DNA of 64,000 nt from Peptococcaceae bacterium. Lineage in GTDB: Bacteria; Bacillota; Peptococcia; DRI-13; UBA5745. Shown in pieces: positions 11,232-62,255 of this stretch (position 1 is the first letter of the stretch; every line of letters begins with the position of its first letter). Below the pieces are notes generated by a model. That model did not search any database. It had not been told where the DNA came from and saw only the letters and a program-made list of their open reading frames with translations. The stretch spans positions 40,229 to 104,228 of the forward strand of contig JAYFQF010000005.1 of assembly GCA_034927285.1 (NCBI GenBank), given 5' to 3'. Both the position numbers and the translations under genes were made by a program.

Positions 11232-12161
11232 TTACGGGAAGATAAAGCTGACGCTTACCTTCTCATATCGATGAGAGAGTTCTTCTTCTATATACGCAGC
11301 TTGCTGAAGCAATTCGGTTTTGTTAATGATCTCGGACAGGCTGTCCAGATGAACGGAAATGTTGAAGCTCATGCCTACCTTATGAATAAGGCAATTTTTT
11401 AATTCCGTATTCTTTGGCAGATGCTTCCGAACAACTTGCGTAATCGGCGCCTTTATCTCCTCTTTCGTAACGATTCCATTTGCCATCTCGACAAAGGCCT
11501 CCTGCAAGACCTTCACCGGTTCTTTTATCGAAAACGCCGCCAAGATGATGGTAATGAAGAAGTCCCCCGTATACAGCAGAAAGGAAAAAGAGCCGCTTCC
11601 GTTACTGTCTCCCGTACTGCCTCCACTGATAAAGGACATGATCAGGACGCCAAAGCCGATTCCTCCGGACATAAGACCGTCAATTAACGTGGCTTTCGCT
11701 TCCGCGGCCAGCATTGTGCTTGTATTGTTCGTACGCTTATTTTGCTTCCAATAAAAAAGGGACAAGGCGGCGCACAGAACGACCATGACGATTTCGTAAG
11801 GAATAACCGGACCATAATGCATGATCTCGCCGATTCCATACAGGAAGTAATCCATCGCCTTGGCCGTGACGATTACCGCAGCGTAAACGAGCAGGCCCAG
11901 GGTAAGAAGCGATTTCAGTATGGCGTAAAGGGGTTCCAGAAAAAAATATCCCCGGGGAAAAGACTTGCTCGTATTTTTACTTTTTTTCGAGATAATAGCG
12001 GCCGCAATCCCGGAAAAGACGGTCAGCAAGGTAAAGTACGCGTCGAGGAAAAGCGCCTCTATTTTTGTGATATGGTAAACCCAAATCCCCGCTCCGCCCA
12101 TCAGCATGTTGGAGATGATTCCAACAATTAAAGCTCTATGTTCGTATTTTTTTTGGTTCAT
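11232..12161 (-). CDS. divergent cation-diffusion-facilitator-like membrane transporter
   Basis: 309 aa with about 6 predicted TM helices and a C-terminal cytoplasmic domain. ALFLDAYFTLL and AKATLIDGLMSGG sit where CDF metal-site motifs occur, but the usual His residues are absent. The region is low in GC. Confidence 0.5.
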   Translation of the reverse strand: MNQKKYEHRALIVGIISNMLMGGAGIWVYHITKIEALFLDAYFTLLTVFSGIAAAIISKKSKNTSKSFPRGYFFLEPLYAILKSLLTLGLLVYAAVIVTAKAMDYFLYGIGEIMHYGPVIPYEIVMVVLCAALSLFYWKQNKRTNNTSTMLAAEAKATLIDGLMSGGIGFGVLIMSFISGGSTGDSNGSGSFSFLLYTGDFFITIILAAFSIKEPVKVLQEAFVEMANGIVTKEEIKAPITQVVRKHLPKNTELKNCLIHKVGMSFNISVHLDSLSEIINKTELLQQAAYIEEELSHRYEKVSVSFIFP

Positions 12162-12221
12162 GCGAAGTCACCCATCGCTGCCGGTCCTCCATATTTGTTT
12201 TGACAATTCTTCAATCCGATG

Positions 12222-12248
12222 GTACACTTGTAATGTCAATACAAGTGT
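12222..12248. promoter_or_regulatory. candidate TetR operator (perfect 10-bp inverted repeat) in the divergent promoter region
   Basis: TACACTTGTA-atgtcaa-TACAAGTGTA. It overlaps a plus-strand TTGACA (12198-12203) / TGgTACACT promoter. Confidence 0.6.
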
Positions 12249-12312
12249 ATTCTGCCGAAGACGCTTTGTCAACACATCCCCAATCGGAGTGAACAAACCA
12301 GGAGGAATTGTA

Positions 12313-12882
12313 ATGGCGGAAATGAACTCAGAAATGAAAAAGCGGGAAATTCTTCGCTTATCGAATAAAGAATCAAATAAACTAACAAGAGAATGCATCG
12401 AGGCCGCGTTGATTTTGTTAATGGCCGAAAAGGACTACTCGAAAATAACGATCTCTGAAATTGTAAAGCGGGCCGGTGTTTCAAGAACAGCATATTACCG
12501 CAATTATGAATCCAAGGACGACATATTAAATACTTTACTCCGTTTTCTGATCGCCGATATTATTAAAGCGATGACCCAATTCTCCTATGTCACGGAACAG
12601 AAAATGTACTGGAAAACCTTATTTGTTACGATAAAAGCTCACGCCGGATCTTTCTGCGTTCTGTTAAAAGCAGGTTTTGGGCAGATCATCCTGGAAGAGA
12701 TCACAAGGCAAATGACGGCCGGGATCAAGGAAGAAAATACGAAAGACCGATACGACATGATTTTTTGGAGCGGTGCTGTTTGTAACGTACTGACAAATTG
12801 GATTCAGGACGGGATGAAGCAGACGGAAGAGGAAATGGTAGAAATCTGTTTATATGTCACCGGTTATTTTGATCATGCCTGA
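12313..12882 (+). CDS. TetR/AcrR family transcriptional regulator
   Basis: ATG at 12313 after GGAGGAATTGTA. ITISEIVKRAGVSRTAYYRNYESKDDIL is a TetR HTH signature. Confidence 0.88.
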   Translation: MAEMNSEMKKREILRLSNKESNKLTRECIEAALILLMAEKDYSKITISEIVKRAGVSRTAYYRNYESKDDILNTLLRFLIADIIKAMTQFSYVTEQKMYWKTLFVTIKAHAGSFCVLLKAGFGQIILEEITRQMTAGIKEENTKDRYDMIFWSGAVCNVLTNWIQDGMKQTEEEMVEICLYVTGYFDHA

Positions 12883-14417: not shown

Positions 14418-15059
14418 ATGCCGAAAATGCCGGCTGAGCTTTTTGCCGCCGGCGATCCGGAACTCCTGCTGGCCGAAGCCCGGCAGGATGAGCGGGACAT
14501 CGAGTTCTGTCAGATCAAAGACGCCGTCCTGACCGGTGCGGATTTAACCGGTCTAAATTTTCACAGCGTGTTGTTGGAAAACTGCCGGTTCCCGAACTGC
14601 CGGGCAGAGCGCTCCGCCTTTGTGGACGTGATCTTTCGCCGCTGCGACCTGTCCAACGCCAATTTCAGCCAGAGCTACTTCAACCGCTGTGAATTCCATT
14701 CCTGCAAGGCCCTGGGAACAAATTTTTACCATAGCGGGCTCAAGCAAATGACGGTACAGGAGTCCAACTGCCAATATGCAAATTTTGACGAAAGCAAGCT
14801 GGAATACATCGAGATCCAGGGAAGTGATTTTTCCGGCGCTATCCTGGGAAATTGCCGGCTAACGGAGTTTACCGTACAGCAAACCCGGCTGGAGGGCGCC
14901 GTATTTGTTAAAACCTCATTGAAGGACGTGGACCTGAGCGACGATCAGATCGAAGGGATTACGGTATCCGACAACTGCTGGGAGCTGCGGGGCGTTACGG
15001 TTTCTCCCTGGCAGGCTATCGACCTGGCCCGGCTCTTTGGGTTGACGGTTAAAAACTGA
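14418..15059 (+). CDS. pentapeptide-repeat protein, Qnr/EfsQnr-like size and architecture (213 aa)
   Basis: Trimmed to MPKMPAELF at 14418. Tandem A(D/N)LXX-type repeats run throughout (ADLTGLNFHSVLLENCRF..., CDLSNANFSQSYFNRCEF...). The C-terminus, RGVTVSPWQAIDLARLFGLTV, resembles the Qnr-family dimerisation tail. Confidence 0.8.
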   Translation: MPKMPAELFAAGDPELLLAEARQDERDIEFCQIKDAVLTGADLTGLNFHSVLLENCRFPNCRAERSAFVDVIFRRCDLSNANFSQSYFNRCEFHSCKALGTNFYHSGLKQMTVQESNCQYANFDESKLEYIEIQGSDFSGAILGNCRLTEFTVQQTRLEGAVFVKTSLKDVDLSDDQIEGITVSDNCWELRGVTVSPWQAIDLARLFGLTVKN

Positions 15060-15165
15060 TCTTAGTCCGGCCCAAGTCTGGCGCCGCAGTATCGGCGCCA
15101 ACGCCAGCCGGGCATGGTTATGACGGTATCCGATCCTGAATCGTCGGACACTCCGGCTTCAGCAT

Positions 15166-15215
15166 CACCATTACCATCACCATTACCATTATTATCACCA
15201 TCATTATCGCCGCTC
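15166..15215. repeat. imperfect caccattac/catcat microsatellite
   Basis: catcaccattaccatcaccattaccattattatcaccatcattatcgcc. No frame gives a convincing ORF. Confidence 0.7.
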
Positions 15216-15242
15216 CCGGCTCCTCATGGCTGATGACCTATG

Positions 15243-15459
15243 TTTACCGGAAAATCCCTTTGTTTTTAAAGCGAATCCCGGTAAATTTCTCCCAAAGCAC
15301 TGATTTTGCCTTGACGGCAAGGGTAAGCCATAGCGTTAAGGCAAAATGGCGAGCCTTTTTCCTTTGATGGTGGAAAAAGTGAAGCAGCATCCTCCTCCCG
15401 GAGACTGTCGGGAACTTTTACCGGGATTTTCAGAAAAAACATGACGAAATCCCGGTAAA
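15243..15459. other. cluster of three strong inverted repeats, two of them built from the motif AAATCCCGGTAAA
   Basis: H1 is TTTACCGG (15243-15250) paired with CCGGTAAA (15278-15285). H2 is ATTTTGCCTT (15303-15312) paired with AAGGCAAAAT (15338-15347), with an alternative inner CCTTG/CAAGG stem. H3 is TTTACCGGGATTT (15417-15429) paired with AAATCCCGGTAAA (15447-15459), a perfect 13 bp. Confidence 0.7.
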
Positions 15460-15667
15460 CATCGCCGGAGGCCGCCGTCCTTAGCTCCTCTGGGGTCGCT
15501 TTACGGCCAAAAGCAGCCCCAAGTCCCGGCTTTTTTACCGCCCAGGGGATGCTCCAAGCAGAAAAAACGGCTTTTTGCCCTTCAATGGACAGGATAAGCA
15601 ACCCCTTGCCGGAGGCTTTTGCCTCCCCGTGGGGACTGCTCTACGAGAAAACGATTGATCTTGTACG

Positions 15668-15788
15668 GATCTTGATCTCAACGCATCCGGCTCTTGATTT
15701 CCTGCCAGCCGCGCGGCCCGCCACGGGCGGAGAATGATGATGAAATTCACGTTGCTCAGTTAATCATGAATCTTGAATCGGTTAACCC
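15668..15788. repeat. copy 3 of the dispersed ~101-bp-period intergenic repeat (B-A-b)
   Basis: 15668-15734 aligns with 62097-62163 at 52 of 67 positions by hand alignment. It includes the identical block cctgccag..gcccgccacgggcgg. A 33-nt A-like module and a restart of B (gaatcttgaatcgg) follow. Confidence 0.75.
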
Positions 15789-15858
15789 ATTGGCCAACCA
15801 AATTGTTGAAGCTTATCATCTCATCTCCTTATAAAAGGCACTGCGCTATATCCTTATT

Positions 15859-15911
15859 AAAAAGGCTGCCGCTCTTTGGTTTTGTCAACCAATTTGCGAC
15901 AGCCCTTTTTT
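15859..15911. terminator. bidirectional terminator abutting the DHHW gene stop
   Basis: GGCTGCCGC ... GCGACAGCC stem (one mismatch) with an inner ttggtt/aaccaa stem. It is flanked by AAAAA and TTTTTT. Confidence 0.6.
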
Positions 15912-17562
15912 ATTGGCTGCCATAGCGGGACAAATAGCTGCCTACCTGGCTGATAGTACGGTCGCTGGCAAAGGTTTCGGCATTATAGAGAAAAAGCACC
16001 TGGTTGATCCGGTTTTCCTTCATGTAGGCAACAGGATCCTTATGCCAGTAACGCAGGTCCACCACATGGATTTCCTCAAAATAAGGGGTTAAAAAAGGGA
16101 TCAGGCAATGAGCATAGGAATCCTTGAAAACCAGCAGCCGCAGGCCCGGGTCTGGCGGCTCTTCCCGCAAAACATCATTGCCGGCAAAACCCCCTTCCGC
16201 AGGTTTTTGGTCCTGCTGCCCGGCGGGGCCGGCAGCGTTCTCCCCGGTCTGAAAGGCCTGGGCCGGCGCTCCGGCCTCCTCTGCTTTTCCTGTCCGGATC
16301 ACCGTCAGTGGTTTGTTTCCGTTCAGAAAATAAGCGTATTTATCCTTGCTCTCCAGATAAGCCGGACCATATAGGGAGTCGCCGGTTTCCTCGCTGCTGC
16401 CGTCATAATAGGTTACCTTAACTTTCGGCTCGCCCGCATCCAGTGTGTAAATCTCGATACTGTCAGGGTCGATGGCGGGCAAGCTGTTTTTTGACCAAAG
16501 GGTGCCGTAGAAGTCGCCGCTGACCCGCTCCTCAGTATAGGCGTCACGGGGATTGGGAGTAAGACCCAGCCATTCCAGATAAGCGGCGTAGCCCTGATAA
16601 GCCGCTGCCGTAACCCAATGATGGTCGGTTCGATAATAGACCTGGCGGCCGGAAGCGTTCATCTCCCTGAGGGCCGGCGTCACGTCAATATAAGCCTCCC
16701 CCAGGTCCGCCTTGGCCTGGGCCAGCAACTCCGCCTGATCGGGCAAATAGGCGTAAGCAGGCAGTTTATCCCGCAGGACCTCAGCCGCCGTAGGCACTAA
16801 AAGCAGAGCGGTTTGAAAAGGCTGCAGGCCTTCCAGGGATTCCGCGGAAGTCTTTAAGGAAGCGGCGTCCTTTTCCGCCGCCTTCCTGCCGTCCGCCAAG
16901 GGCCCGACAACGTTTTCTATTTCGGCGGTGCCCTTTTCCTGATCGGCTTTTTCGCCCTGGCGGCTACCGGCTGCGGCGGTCAAGGTATCCCCCAGCCTCT
17001 TCATCGCCTGGACGGCCGCCAGGTTTTTTTCCACAATGGCCTGATCCACCGGTTCCAGGGCGCCGATCAGATATCCCTGGGCGGCGTTATAAACCTTATT
17101 GTTTTCCTTCTGGAAAGCAGCCTTCTGGCACAGAGCCTTAAGGCTGACCCAGCGGTCCCGGGCCGGAAACTGGTCCATAATAAATTCCTCGATATCGGCC
17201 ATATACTCAGCGCTTTTTATGGCTTTCCACCGGGCCTGGGGCAACTGAGCCAAATAACGGTTTTCCTGGGCGGAAAACTCCCGGGGGGGCAGCAGGACAA
17301 AGGCGGCGGCCAGAATGAAGATAAAAGCGCAAAACACCAAGGCCATGGCCTTGCCGGCCACCGGGTCTTCCCTGGCGCTGACAGGGTCCGGATCCACAAG
17401 TGGCACATCCGGAGTCACGAACCCTGCTTGCAGATCCATAAGTCCTGCTTCCGGATCCACCAGTCCTGCCGGTTGACGGAATCCTGCCGCCTTCCCGGCC
17501 TGCCCAGCGTCCTTTTTCGTCTTGGGACCCGGGGAAACGCCTTTCCGCTTGTCTTTTTTCAT
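15910..17562 (-). CDS. DHHW family protein (AlgJ/AlgX-like extracytoplasmic acyltransferase/esterase partner)
   Basis: 550 aa with an AAGGAGG RBS. It has a TM anchor, the eponymous YYRTDHHW motif and a C-terminal FKDSYAH. The N-terminus and two internal segments are low-complexity. Confidence 0.8.
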   Translation of the reverse strand: MKKDKRKGVSPGPKTKKDAGQAGKAAGFRQPAGLVDPEAGLMDLQAGFVTPDVPLVDPDPVSAREDPVAGKAMALVFCAFIFILAAAFVLLPPREFSAQENRYLAQLPQARWKAIKSAEYMADIEEFIMDQFPARDRWVSLKALCQKAAFQKENNKVYNAAQGYLIGALEPVDQAIVEKNLAAVQAMKRLGDTLTAAAGSRQGEKADQEKGTAEIENVVGPLADGRKAAEKDAASLKTSAESLEGLQPFQTALLLVPTAAEVLRDKLPAYAYLPDQAELLAQAKADLGEAYIDVTPALREMNASGRQVYYRTDHHWVTAAAYQGYAAYLEWLGLTPNPRDAYTEERVSGDFYGTLWSKNSLPAIDPDSIEIYTLDAGEPKVKVTYYDGSSEETGDSLYGPAYLESKDKYAYFLNGNKPLTVIRTGKAEEAGAPAQAFQTGENAAGPAGQQDQKPAEGGFAGNDVLREEPPDPGLRLLVFKDSYAHCLIPFLTPYFEEIHVVDLRYWHKDPVAYMKENRINQVLFLYNAETFASDRTISQVGSYLSRYGSQ

Positions 17563-31960: not shown

Positions 31961-32270
31961 AAAAAAAGACCTTTTCCCTATCATGCGGAAAAGGTCAGAA
32001 TCAGCCGCTTGCGCGCGCCTGTCGGTTTACCGTCCCGCCAGAATTCCGTGGCGGACCGGCACTTCCCACCTCTTGCCGAGTCGGGTATGAATCATCAGGC
32101 AGGTCTTCTGGCTCAGGCTTCGGCGCCGGCGCTCCGTCTTCCCGTGTGTAACCACAGTGACCTTCTGGAGCGCGGCTCGGCCATTACAGCGGCGGTCCCG
32201 CGTGGGCTTCTCACCCAGCTTCCCTATTCTCGCAAGCCCAAAGGGCCTGCGCACCTGACGATGCTATATC
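31961..32270 (-). promoter_or_regulatory. cobalamin (B12) riboswitch with terminator expression platform
   Basis: The minus strand reads AATAGGGAAGCTGGGTGAGAAGCCCACGCGGGACCGCCGCTGTAATGG ... GTCACTGTGG ... GGGAAGACGG ... AGCCAGAAGACCTGCC (B12-box and core motifs). The terminator GACCTTTTCC-N10-GGAAAAGGTC + T7 lies at 31961-31996. An upstream TTGACA-17-TAAACT promoter lies at 32306-32278. Confidence 0.88.
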
Positions 32271-32350
32271 AACACTTAGTTTAGTCCCTGCCGCAGCCGG
32301 TGTCAAGAGCGGGGATTTCTTTTGGGATTTTTCTTTTTCAAGCAACTCAG

Positions 32351-38736: not shown

Positions 38737-38852
38737 ATATAATTATATCATGAATTCTGATCAGAACGCGGCGGTCTCTTTATAACGCGCCTGTCGCACG
38801 GCCCGCCACGAGAGGAAAATTATGACGTAATCCCCTGTGTTCATTATAAAAT
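38731..38852. repeat. copy 1 of the dispersed ~101-bp-period intergenic repeat ((a)-B-A)
   Basis: 38752-38819 aligns with 62097-62163 at 51 of 67 positions by hand alignment. 38820-38852 aligns with the 33-nt A module at 28 of 33. Confidence 0.75.
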
Positions 38853-38880
38853 AAGATCATGATCAGAGGAGGCGGACAAA

Positions 38881-40458
38881 ATGACTCTGGGACTCTTTGA
38901 CGTAATCGGGCCGGTGATGCACGGCCCCTCCAGCAACCATACCGGCGGCGCCAACCGCATCGGCTATCTGGCACGGCAGCTGATGGGGGGCAGGCCGGAA
39001 AAAATCCGTTTGGGCTTTCATCCGGCCTATATGGGTTCCTATACCGGCCAGAAAAGTCATACGGCCCTCATCGCCGGCTGCCTGGGCTTCCGGGAATATG
39101 ACGACGAAAGCACCCAATCCCTGGAAATCGCCGCAAAGCTGGGCATTCCCTGGGAGGCCTATGCCATCGGCGAAACCGGGCGCAGCCGCAATACGATGCG
39201 GGTGACAGGAGAAATCCGGGGCCAGCTCTGGGAGATCAACGGCGACTCCGTCGGCGGCGGCAATATCCTCATCGACCGGATCAACGGACTGGAGGTCAGC
39301 CTGGACGGCAATACCTGGGAAGTCATGGCTTCTGCCGACACCGACGCCCTGCTGCGGGAGCTCCTGGATTTTCTGGCCGGGCTGGACGGCTGCAAAACAG
39401 CAGTTTCCGGGCAGGCCCTGGAGCAGCGCTTCCTTTGCTGCGGCACCTTTTCCCAGGAGCCGCCCTCCGCGGCAGCCCTGCCTCCCTCCCTGAAGCAGGC
39501 GGAAGAGGAAGGCCGGCTGGTCTGGCGGGTGGTGCCGCCCTTGTACAAATTCAGCGATTCCGGCTGTCCTCCCCTTTTTACTACCTTCGCCCAGCTTTTG
39601 GCGCTGTGCCGGGACAGGGACATCCTGGACGTCATCCTGGAGTACGAAAGCCGCCGCAGCCAGGTAACCAAAGAAGAGGTGCTGGCGGAAGCGGAATACC
39701 TGGTGGAAGTCATCGCCGGCGCCCTGGCAAAGGGGGAGAAGGAAGAGATCCGGCTGATCGGGATGCTTACGGACCCTGGCGACGGCAAAAGGATGCTGGC
39801 CTGGGCTGCCTCCGGCCAGGCCGTAGTTAACGAAATGTTTGCCAAAGGCCTGGGCCGGGCCATGATCCTGGCCCAGCTGAACGCGGCTGCCGGCCGCATC
39901 GTGGCCGCCCCTACGGGAGGTTCCGCCGGCAGCCTGCCCGGCACTCTCTTCTCTGCGGCAGAGCGTTACGATAAGGATAAAAAGGAGTTGGCCAAGGCTT
40001 TCCTGATCGCCGGGGCCATCGGCCTGATCGTCGGTAATCAGGCCTCGTTTTCCGGCACCATCGGCGGCTGTCAGAGCGAGGTAGGCATCGGCGCCGCCAT
40101 GGGCGCCAGCGGCGTGATCTGGCTGGCCGGAGGCACGGCGGAGGAGATCGTTCAGGGCGCGGCCATTGCCTTAAAGAATGTGCTGGGACTGACCTGTGAT
40201 CCCCCGGCCAGTCCCACGGAAATTCCCTGCATCAAACGCAACGCCATGGGGGTGGCCATGGCCTTTTTCGGGGCGGAAATGGGGCTGGCGGGGATCCGTT
40301 CCGCCATTGCTCCCGACGACGTGGTGGCGGCTCTGGCGGAGACCCAGCGTCTGATGCCCATGGAGCTTAAATTCTCCCACTGCGGCGGGCTGGCCGCCAC
40401 CAAATCCGGCCGGGAGCTGAACAAACAGTGGCAGGAGCGGCTGAAAACCCTGAAATAA
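38881..40458 (+). CDS. sdaA: L-serine ammonia-lyase, iron-sulfur-dependent, fused beta-alpha form
   Basis: The N-terminus FDVIGPVMHGPSSNHTGG is the beta-domain motif. The alpha domain carries GGCQSEVGIGAAMGA and LGLTCDPPASPTEIPCIKRNAMG (cluster Cys residues). The RBS is GAGGAGG. Confidence 0.88.
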   Translation: MTLGLFDVIGPVMHGPSSNHTGGANRIGYLARQLMGGRPEKIRLGFHPAYMGSYTGQKSHTALIAGCLGFREYDDESTQSLEIAAKLGIPWEAYAIGETGRSRNTMRVTGEIRGQLWEINGDSVGGGNILIDRINGLEVSLDGNTWEVMASADTDALLRELLDFLAGLDGCKTAVSGQALEQRFLCCGTFSQEPPSAAALPPSLKQAEEEGRLVWRVVPPLYKFSDSGCPPLFTTFAQLLALCRDRDILDVILEYESRRSQVTKEEVLAEAEYLVEVIAGALAKGEKEEIRLIGMLTDPGDGKRMLAWAASGQAVVNEMFAKGLGRAMILAQLNAAAGRIVAAPTGGSAGSLPGTLFSAAERYDKDKKELAKAFLIAGAIGLIVGNQASFSGTIGGCQSEVGIGAAMGASGVIWLAGGTAEEIVQGAAIALKNVLGLTCDPPASPTEIPCIKRNAMGVAMAFFGAEMGLAGIRSAIAPDDVVAALAETQRLMPMELKFSHCGGLAATKSGRELNKQWQERLKTLK

Positions 40459-52123: not shown

Positions 52124-52199
52124 TGGTGGGCGGTGACGGGATCGAACCGCCGACATCTTGCTTGTAAGGCAAGCGCTCTCCCAGCTGAGCTAACCGCCC
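52124..52199 (-). tRNA. tRNA-Val (anticodon UAC)
   Basis: The minus strand reads GGGCGGTTAGCTCAGCTGGGAGAGCGCTTGCCTTACAAGCAAGATGTCGGCGGTTCGATCCCGTCACCGCCCACCA. It folds as a cloverleaf with anticodon loop CTTACAA and an encoded CCA. Confidence 0.93.
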
Positions 52200-52208
52200 G
52201 GGACCAAA

Positions 52209-52284
52209 TGGTGAGCCATCCGCGACTCGAACGCGGGACACCCTGATTAAAAGTCAGGTGCTCTGCCAACTGAGCTAATGGCTC
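52209..52284 (-). tRNA. tRNA-Lys (anticodon UUU)
   Basis: The minus strand reads GAGCCATTAGCTCAGTTGGCAGAGCACCTGACTTTTAATCAGGGTGTCCCGCGTTCGAGTCGCGGATGGCTCACCA, with anticodon loop CTTTTAA and an encoded CCA. Confidence 0.93.
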
Positions 52285-62063: not shown

Positions 62064-62197
62064 TTATGACGTAATTCGCTGCGTTCATTATATCATGAAT
62101 TCTGATTGGAACGCGGCCCGCTCTTTACTTCCTGCCAGTCGCACAGCCCGCCACGGGCGGTGATTTATGATGTAATTCGCTGCGTTCATTATATCAT
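62064..62197. repeat. copy 2 (best preserved) of the dispersed ~101-bp-period intergenic repeat (A-B-A)
   Basis: The 33-nt ttatgaCgtaattcgctgcgttcattatatcat (62064-62096) recurs at 62165-62197 with a single C>T change. A 68-nt B segment lies between them. Confidence 0.9.
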
Positions 62198-62218
62198 AAC
62201 TTGACGCTTCAGGTACAG

Positions 62219-62255
62219 AAAAGCCACAGGATGCGTAAATATCCTGTGGCTTTTA
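62219..62255. terminator. bidirectional terminator downstream of the bactofilin gene
   Basis: AAAGCCACAGGAT-gcgtaaat-ATCCTGTGGCTTTT. Confidence 0.8.

Follow-up and report, generated by a model that had tools for sequence, protein, structure and literature searches.

The DNA analysed here, hereafter called the window, is a 64,000-nt stretch from a Peptococcaceae bacterium, and our subject is a hairpin-rich spacer within it, on which a pentapeptide-repeat gene (plus strand, stop codon at 15059) and a DHHW/AlgX-like gene (minus strand, 15910-17562) converge. The hairpin stretch is the spacer of these convergent genes and not a leader, and its central part, 15165-15640, is non-coding accessory DNA that was probably inserted between them. 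The first part of the spacer, from the pentapeptide stop codon to a microsatellite (15060-15158), contains a GC-rich hairpin at 15079-15100. The microsatellite itself (15159-15208) has periods of 6, 12, and 18 nt; translated, it gives a frame rich in Ile and Thr on the plus strand and one rich in Asp, Asn, and Gly on the minus strand. After a conserved junction, delimited by invariant runs and alignment, whose minus strand reads AGGTCATCAGCCATGAGGAGCCGGGAGCGGCG (15209-15239), come the hairpins H1, H2, and H3. H1 is the first copy of a hairpin unit (15240-15285), with 8-bp arms TTTACCGG and CCGGTAAA at 15243-15250 and 15278-15285 and 27 nt between them. The inter-repeat segment (15286-15416) holds H2, with 14-nt arms at 15303-15316 and 15334-15347 that are 93% matched (the outer 10 bp perfectly) around a 17-nt loop, and a hairpin with an 8-bp stem at 15355-15379. 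The second copy of the unit, H3 (15417-15462), has a perfect 13-bp stem formed by TTTACCGGGATTT (15417-15429) and AAATCCCGGTAAA (15447-15459) around a 17-nt loop. Beyond H3 lie a further module (15463-15640), with a GGAGGC-TTTT-GCCTCC hairpin at 15611-15626, and finally a terminator-like bidirectional hairpin (15856-15912) that abuts the DHHW stop codon.

All of these features, from the hairpins to the microsatellite and a shared 13-nt motif, are real and exceed what chance would produce. Allowing up to 2 mismatches, AAATCCCGGTAAA occurs 7 times in the 64 kb against 2.15 expected, a number reached by none of 100 shuffles, and the best three matches all lie within 15273-15459. The window contains 21 perfect hairpins whose stems reach 10 bp or more, compared with 3.5 ± 1.8 in Markov-1 random sequence, and two of the 21 fall in this spacer, 70 nt apart. 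Folding of 15230-15470 gave z = −5.6 for the plus strand and z = −6.8 for the minus strand; as single-stranded DNA, the predicted energies were −12.9 kcal/mol for H3 (z = −5.2), −12.4 kcal/mol for H2 (z = −4.7), and −6.8 kcal/mol for H1 (z = −2.4). An original prediction, made from the letters of the window, had described H1, H2, and H3 at these positions, and they were recovered by an inverted-repeat search; the caccattac-type microsatellite that it reported is likewise present, at the coordinates given above, the GGAGGC hairpin lies one base from where it had been put, and the clustering of a shared 12-13-nt motif is borne out by the location of the best three matches.

A 111-aa open reading frame (ORF) on the minus strand (15266-15601) traverses H1-H3, and its frame runs on through two stop codons into a D/N/G-rich tail, all of which the original prediction had described in judging the frame unlikely to be a gene. 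That judgement withstood tests of codon position, selection, composition, codon usage, and homology: we do not count the ORF as a gene and regard the region as non-coding. Substitutions were spread over the three codon positions without bias (7/9/9, 9/7/9, 9/14/20, and 28/27/26 in pairwise comparisons), and the ratio of nonsynonymous to synonymous substitution rates (dN/dS) was 0.39-0.69, inside the range of five control frames (0.47-1.2). GC content at third codon positions (GC3) was 0.49 versus 0.71 ± 0.04 in 29 genes of the window, and no 111-codon piece of those genes scored as low as the ORF, whose codon score was −0.13 per codon. The ORF matched no Pfam or PHROG family, a protein search with the other five reading frames retrieved nothing, and when 1.84 billion representative proteins were searched with a profile, only DNA copies of the region itself came back; on the same four grounds, a decayed known gene was rejected as the source.

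The translation of the ORF nevertheless proved useful for locating those copies. Searched against 5.8 billion proteins, it retrieved only five relatives, at 70-85% identity, and a cluster look-up added a sixth. The original prediction had named conserved BLASTP homologues under purifying selection as a refutation; the five relatives that our search returned are all further DNA copies and have neither purifying selection nor gene-like codon usage. The copies on five metagenomic contigs (here L132-L135 and L140) represent three gene contexts besides that of the window; L133 and L135 are the same locus in different samples. The window at 15165-15640 is 87-92% identical in nucleotide sequence to L133, L134, and L135, and at 15203-15498 it is 82% identical to L132. 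Only the element is common to the window and these contigs (L132-L135 and L140), the other flanks being unrelated; neighbours of the copies are an ABC transporter, PadR, and GroEL; an MFS transporter; and unknown small genes. It would also have been refuted by motif and hairpins conserved in no relative, but both are conserved in these.

Two types of copy can be distinguished. Type A, comprising the window and L133-L135, carries the module at 15463-15640, whereas type B, comprising L132, L140, and a copy designated P0004, lacks the module at 15463-15615 and has a different upstream sequence. Weaker homology extends over 15641-15695 and is common to L134 (77.5%) and L132. The microsatellite is found at the same end in every copy, with a unit and length that vary among copies, and on reading the sequences, the stretch at about 15110-15150 resembles the spacer after the repeat tail of L132 and L135 (CCGGACGATTCA..GGAT.CC), apparently following a deletion. 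Three of the six other copies (L132, L133, and P0004) sit at or near a contig end, as repeats tend to do. P0004 (MEA4893616.1) is a type-B copy at a contig edge in a Peptococcaceae bacterium metagenome-assembled genome (MAG), and the DHHW protein of the window is 100% identical to MEA4891395.1, also from a Peptococcaceae bacterium MAG. As these accessions are only 2,221 apart under the same organism name, they point to one assembly, and the source genome therefore probably holds a second, diverged copy of the element.

Comparison of the copies also clarifies the anatomy of the element. H1 repeats H3 in inverted and degraded form, with the loop as well (15240-15285 versus 15417-15462; 46 nt, 74% complementary). 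In L132, H1 is perfect, with a 13-bp stem and a 17-nt loop whose reverse complement is the H3 loop; the inverted repeat there reaches 58 nt at 84%. The core is therefore a foldback of about 223 bp (15240-15462) that consists of one hairpin unit, 107-131 nt containing H2 and the 8-bp hairpin, and an inverted second unit; each unit is 46-58 nt long and holds a palindrome of 13-bp stem and 17-nt loop. In the minimum-energy fold, H1 pairs with H3 instead of the two forming local hairpins. The module as a whole measures about 0.5-0.7 kb, corresponding to 15165-15640 in the window with fringes to about 15100 and 15695. A covariance model of the 51-nt hairpin unit, run with filters off on the 64 kb, scored 73 bits at H1 and 74 bits at H3; neither this model nor the AAATCCCGGTAAA pattern found a further unit in the window, and the model found none in 572 kb of related loci outside the element copies.

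Conservation is concentrated in the repeats. Invariance extends furthest in H3 with its flank and loop, in H1, in the 3' arm of H2, in the arms of the 8-bp hairpin, and in AGGTCATCAG; the arms and loop of H3 are almost invariant in six of six copies, and the inter-repeat segment is the most variable part among copies. Read on the minus strand, the 3' arm of H2 (CCGTCAAGGCAAAATC) is invariant, and its 5' arm varies with no compensating change. The two samples of one locus, L133 and L135, are identical for 796 nt, then differ at 30 of 138 positions, and are then identical again through H1; the 30 differences (L133:837-974 versus L135:864-1001) fall exactly between the two hairpin units. This mosaic suggests either that copies of the element recombined or that the assembly is chimeric at the repeats. 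Invariant inverted termini, a free interior, and a mosaic bounded by repeats together fit a small foldback transposable element or recombination between copies. The 30 differences are not adenine-specific, and the target of a diversity-generating retroelement was rejected on that ground.

The syntenic site in the nearest relative lacks the element. In L136 and L137, where the DHHW protein is 62% identical to that of the window and the flanking genes have 70-84% nucleotide identity, the gene order is kept (DUF4358, MBOAT, DHHW, convergent pentapeptide, DUF218), but the stop-to-stop spacer is 76 nt with a single terminator hairpin, compared with 850 nt in the window; the corresponding unaligned gap in blastn is 87 nt versus 861 nt. 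The surrounding block is of housekeeping character (arginine synthesis, iPGM, enolase, and folate C1 enzymes), and no integrase, transposase, or recombinase gene lies within about 14 kb of the element. Identity of the element between unrelated loci (82-92%) exceeds that of the flanking orthologous genes of the two nearest genomes. Because it is absent from the spacer of the nearest syntenic relative and is surrounded by a conserved housekeeping block, the element is probably accessory DNA that was dropped into that block. It is also absent from 80 metagenomic DHHW loci (only about 30% identical), and on this and the 76-nt spacer a conserved syntenic regulatory element was rejected.

Taken together, the different contexts, the empty syntenic site, the invariant inverted-repeat units, and the variable interior are best fitted by a mobile origin. 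With moderate confidence, we interpret the sequence as a foldback element resembling a miniature inverted-repeat transposable element (MITE), or as the remnant of one, whose hairpin units would be protein-recognition sites; mobility, protein recognition, and the lack of a host function are what we infer from the comparisons. The element would be non-autonomous or by now immobilised, its hairpin units would serve as sites for a DNA-binding protein whose gene lies elsewhere, for example a transposase or recombinase, and the interior and microsatellite tail would be passengers. Where the element now lies, it would form no more than a hairpin-rich 3' region transcribed together with the neighbouring genes. 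The original prediction had offered the eroded end of a mobile element as one candidate explanation; its mobile origin fits best, but the sequence looks like a compact foldback and not like the end of something larger.

Small non-autonomous elements of this general kind include Correia in Neisseria, RUP in Streptococcus pneumoniae, and ERIC/IRU in enterobacteria. Like a MITE, the element in the window is short and non-coding (below the approximate limit of 0.6 kb for the 223-bp core, and about 0.5-0.7 kb for the module), has long terminal inverted repeats that fold back (46 nt at 74%; 58 nt at 84% in L132), lies between genes, as such elements often do between convergent ones, is present or absent between relatives at an orthologous site (850 versus 76 nt, where a deletion in the relative is formally possible), and has a drifting interior. 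It differs in that no target-site duplication was seen at the borders of the core, its copy number appears very low (one or two per genome and about four loci in the data searched), each of its inverted repeats holds a perfect 13-bp-stem hairpin, and its core is accompanied by extra modules and a microsatellite. It works like a MITE, but membership is not proven, since no target duplication, parent element, or high copy number was found; we know of no parent insertion sequence with matching ends.

Several observations weigh against a mobile element. No direct repeat abuts 15240 and 15462, but the unit that moves may have other ends, because the H3-side module and the repeat tail accompany the core. 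No transposase was seen in the neighbourhood of the element or next to any copy, nor did we find an autonomous element that shares its ends, and the copy number is low, at about four loci in all public data searched. The 76-nt site of L136 and L137 could in principle reflect a deletion in the relative. Across six copies that diverge by up to about 20%, the 280-nt core is free of indels, which suggests a constraint on length or spacing that would not be expected of a dead passenger. Finally, the minus-strand ORF is open in every copy, although this is partly a matter of ascertainment, as the copies were found via a protein database.

Two better-known kinds of inverted repeat were compared with the element and set aside. 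Repetitive extragenic palindromic (REP) sequences and their BIME and REPIN arrangements are mobilised by RAYT (Y1, IS200-like) transposases and number tens to hundreds of REPs per genome. As in a REPIN, the palindromes here are a few tens of nucleotides long and two inverted units form a larger hairpin, in an extragenic position at the 3' ends of genes. Units (46-58 nt) and spacer (131 nt) are longer, however, no RAYT gene was seen in the window, and the copy number is not high. The suggestion in the original prediction that the motif might be a recurrent operator or REP-like sequence fails locally, neither the 13-mer nor the unit model having a further copy in the 64 kb; with the 572 kb of related loci also empty, a REP-like family was rejected at this scale. 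Invertons, in which inverted repeats enclose an invertible promoter segment, share with the element a segment of about 110-130 bp between inverted repeats, but here the inner segment has the same orientation in six of six copies and contains no promoter-like site, no recombinase gene lies within about 14 kb, and the position is downstream, not upstream, of genes. There is neither a core-site pattern nor an orientation polymorphism, and both an integron attC site and an inverton were rejected.

A structured RNA, which the original prediction had also listed, must be weighed more carefully. The module might carry a small RNA gene of about 250-450 nt on the minus strand, portable with it, whose modelled fold would consist of an H3:H1 helix and inner hairpins; we regard this as unlikely, though the best of the alternatives. 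The predicted fold is very stable (−92 kcal/mol, with the z-scores given above for the two strands), the 280-nt core aligns without gaps across six copies, 97.5% of cells in the predicted minus-strand structure pair, and in L132, L134, and L135, a terminator-like hairpin follows the element in the same orientation. Yet among 85 predicted pairs, the six copies provide no compensatory change, the covariation term is about zero, and shuffles do equally well, a test of low power with only six, closely similar sequences. Changes in the 5' arm of H2 (minus-strand reading) are uncompensated, and loops are as conserved as stems. Rfam gave no match even at E ≤ 10 in the window or its relatives that could speak for an RNA: with Rfam 15, nothing over the element reached the gathering score, and all matches at E ≤ 10 were eukaryotic or otherwise unrelated and at the level of chance. 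Upstream, no promoter-like site was seen on either strand, and no intrinsic terminator follows the element in the window. An apparent preference for the minus strand, drawn from the asymmetry of G-U and A-C pairs (18 versus 4), turned out to be a bias of predicting on that strand and disappears on the strand-neutral pairs predicted on both strands (6 versus 2); it was dropped as a means of assigning the RNA strand.

The third candidate of the original prediction was an array of palindromic protein-binding sites, and here a scan for related sequences gave an unexpected parallel. Searching one genome per species for TTTACCGG-N22-32-AATCCCGGTAAA returned 51 loci, of which about half are not due to chance. 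The non-chance loci contain a perfect 21-bp palindrome, TTTACCGGGA(A/T)TCCCGGTAAA, once or twice, with pairs spaced 27-28 bp apart, in more than 20 species of archaea, candidate phyla radiation (CPR) bacteria, and other bacteria; carriers include Thermoplasmatota, DPANN, and Methanosarcinales archaea, CPR bacteria, Omnitrophota, Ignavibacteria, and Actinomycetota. The palindrome loci are L004, L005, L008, L010, L011, L014, L015, L017, L019, L021, L026-L028, L035, L046, L048, and L050 (for example, L019:2155-2203 and L027:1934-1981). At most of them, the palindrome lies 10-40 nt upstream of a highly conserved gene pair that encodes a GHKL/HATPase-like protein of about 320 aa and a 96-aa DUF4325 STAS-like protein, both of which match the N-terminal part of the PADLOC DrmA model; at a few, no pair lies in the stretch that was fetched. 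Orphan palindromes without the gene pair were seen at L014:2264, L036, L020, and L029. No literature was found on the palindrome, DUF4325 itself being scarcely mentioned, and the motif strings of the window appear in the literature only within unrelated primer sequences.

The H3 arm TTTACCGGGATTT is identical to the palindrome half-site TTTACCGGGA at 12 of 13 positions, and the two may be related. On this basis, the hairpin units might be an array of sites for a palindrome-recognising protein akin to the binder of TTTACCGGGA(A/T)TCCCGGTAAA, the element then being a protein-bound site of regulatory, architectural, or recombinational function and not a transposon. Besides the half-site identity and the wide distribution of the palindrome, arms and loops are conserved at the level of sequence, both sequences are palindromic and occur in pairs, and the 10-nt half-sites of H3 are 23 nt apart, which we estimate at about two helical turns. 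But the half-sites of the palindrome abut (N1) directly upstream of the ATPase gene, whereas those in the window are separated by N23 as hairpin stems at the 3' ends of genes, and the window has no such abutting 21-bp palindrome in an operator position. No ATPase or STAS homologue is encoded in the window, and there is no known binding protein for either sequence. Between the 3' ends of convergent genes, there is nothing for an operator to regulate, and the syntenic relative lives without the site. We therefore consider a binding array of this kind distinctly improbable. A tblastn search of the window with four ATPase/STAS protein pairs gave only noise, and a remnant of the ATPase/STAS operon was rejected.

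A lineage-specific small protein gene, or its decayed remnant, is more doubtful still. It could be the minus-strand ORF (111-172 aa) with its in-frame Asp/Asn/Gly tail, or a hydrophobic, Ile-rich plus-strand peptide resembling a type I toxin. The ORF is open in seven of seven copies, at 104-172 aa, and in L133 the sequence GGAGG stands 7 nt before a TTG start; the core has no frameshifting indels, the period of the repeat tail is a multiple of three, and the tail ends at a conserved GCTGA(A/G)TAA in L132 and L134 and at TCTGAATAA in L135. The plus-strand frame is open through the microsatellite, and its ...PGSSWLMT(Y/F)VYRKIPLFLK.IPVN is conserved. Against this stand the unbiased codon positions, a dN/dS no lower than in the control frames, GC3 and codon scores outside the range of genes, and the finding of no relatives other than DNA copies. 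In all copies, moreover, a TAA stop lies in the H1 loop, and nothing in the tail itself could serve as a start codon. The plus-strand peptide has no start codon in the window and L134 and is interrupted by a stop in L133, and two perfect 13-bp palindromes would be unexpected within the reading frame of a gene.

Least probable of all is the idea that the hairpin units are sites of an undescribed DNA-hairpin-binding or recombination system with the specificity TTTACCGGGA in common with the ATPase/STAS palindrome of archaea, CPR bacteria, and many bacterial phyla. If it were true, a protein-DNA system as yet uncharacterised would be widespread in both domains, and the element in the window would be one of its targets, either orphaned or mobile.

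Two further explanations were set aside. One arm of H2 contains TAGCGT, which we take to be the CS-6 consensus of ssoA, but this arm is not conserved in the other copies, and an ssoA-like single-strand origin of replication was rejected. Derivation from a phage or plasmid was rejected as well, as distant blastn matches covered only the His/Asp-codon microsatellite and two scans of viral contigs contained no match to the element.

Other repeats occur near the element. A dispersed intergenic repeat with three copies in the 64 kb (15657-15772, 38742-38857, and 62064-62202) adjoins the foldback element, overlapping the weaker homology extension at 15641-15695, and is not homologous to the element. 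It consists of a core of about 63 nt with a GCCCGCCACGGGCGG hairpin and 38-nt direct repeats on either side, which resemble sigma-70 promoters (ATGACG, 17 nt, TATAAA or TATATC); one copy lies just upstream of a gene at 38881 and another before a terminator hairpin at 62219-62254. The upstream region of type-B copies (L132 and L140) was compared with the copy at 15657-15772, but the score was that of shuffles (z = 2.6, with a 16-nt match), and homology between them was rejected. The terminator-like hairpin GGGCTGCCGCAA...TTGCGACAGCCC, with TCAACCAATT in its loop, marks the 3' ends of four genes, unrelated and from different MAGs, with 81-92% similarity (window 15856-15912, L132:1133-1183, L134:1067-1113, and L135:~1255-1300). 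Each time it is near the element and beside unrelated convergent genes, and in the window it has the opposite side and relative orientation. L135:17-72 is an Illumina adapter (AATGATACGGCGACCACCGAGATCTACACTCTTTCCCTACACGACGCTCTTCCGATCT) at the start of the public contig ERZ508791 NODE_1179.

A different repeat occupies the equivalent position in a more distant genome: at L138:7480-7700 (GCA_018436295.1; DHHW protein 44% identical), a unit of about 25 nt, CAAAAATTACGTTTGTAT / ATACAAACG(A/G)AAAAATTG, is repeated roughly five times in both orientations within the 800-nt spacer after the DHHW gene. Elsewhere in the window, a cation-efflux (CDF) gene and an adjacent TetR-family gene (11232-12882) fall below a GC3 cut-off of 0.62, which the other 55 likely genes pass, and L136 has other genes at this place; these two genes, 2-4 kb from the element, may form a small island of acquired DNA. 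At the gathering score, Rfam identified only a cobalamin riboswitch (112 bits; 32081-32273, minus strand) and two adjacent tRNA genes (52127-52284, minus strand) in the window.

The element is a modest curiosity and not a new system. Recognising it accounts for the unusual 0.8-kb distance between two convergent genes, which acquired non-coding DNA would fill, and disposes of a spurious gene call of 111 aa carried by public annotations of several MAGs. The more interesting lead is an indirect one, the palindrome that is conserved almost base for base from DPANN archaea to Actinomycetota. For the Peptococcaceae, a poorly sampled lineage, the element provides a low-copy example of a foldback, and its inverted repeats, being perfect hairpins themselves, may assist the search for a protein that binds or mobilises it.

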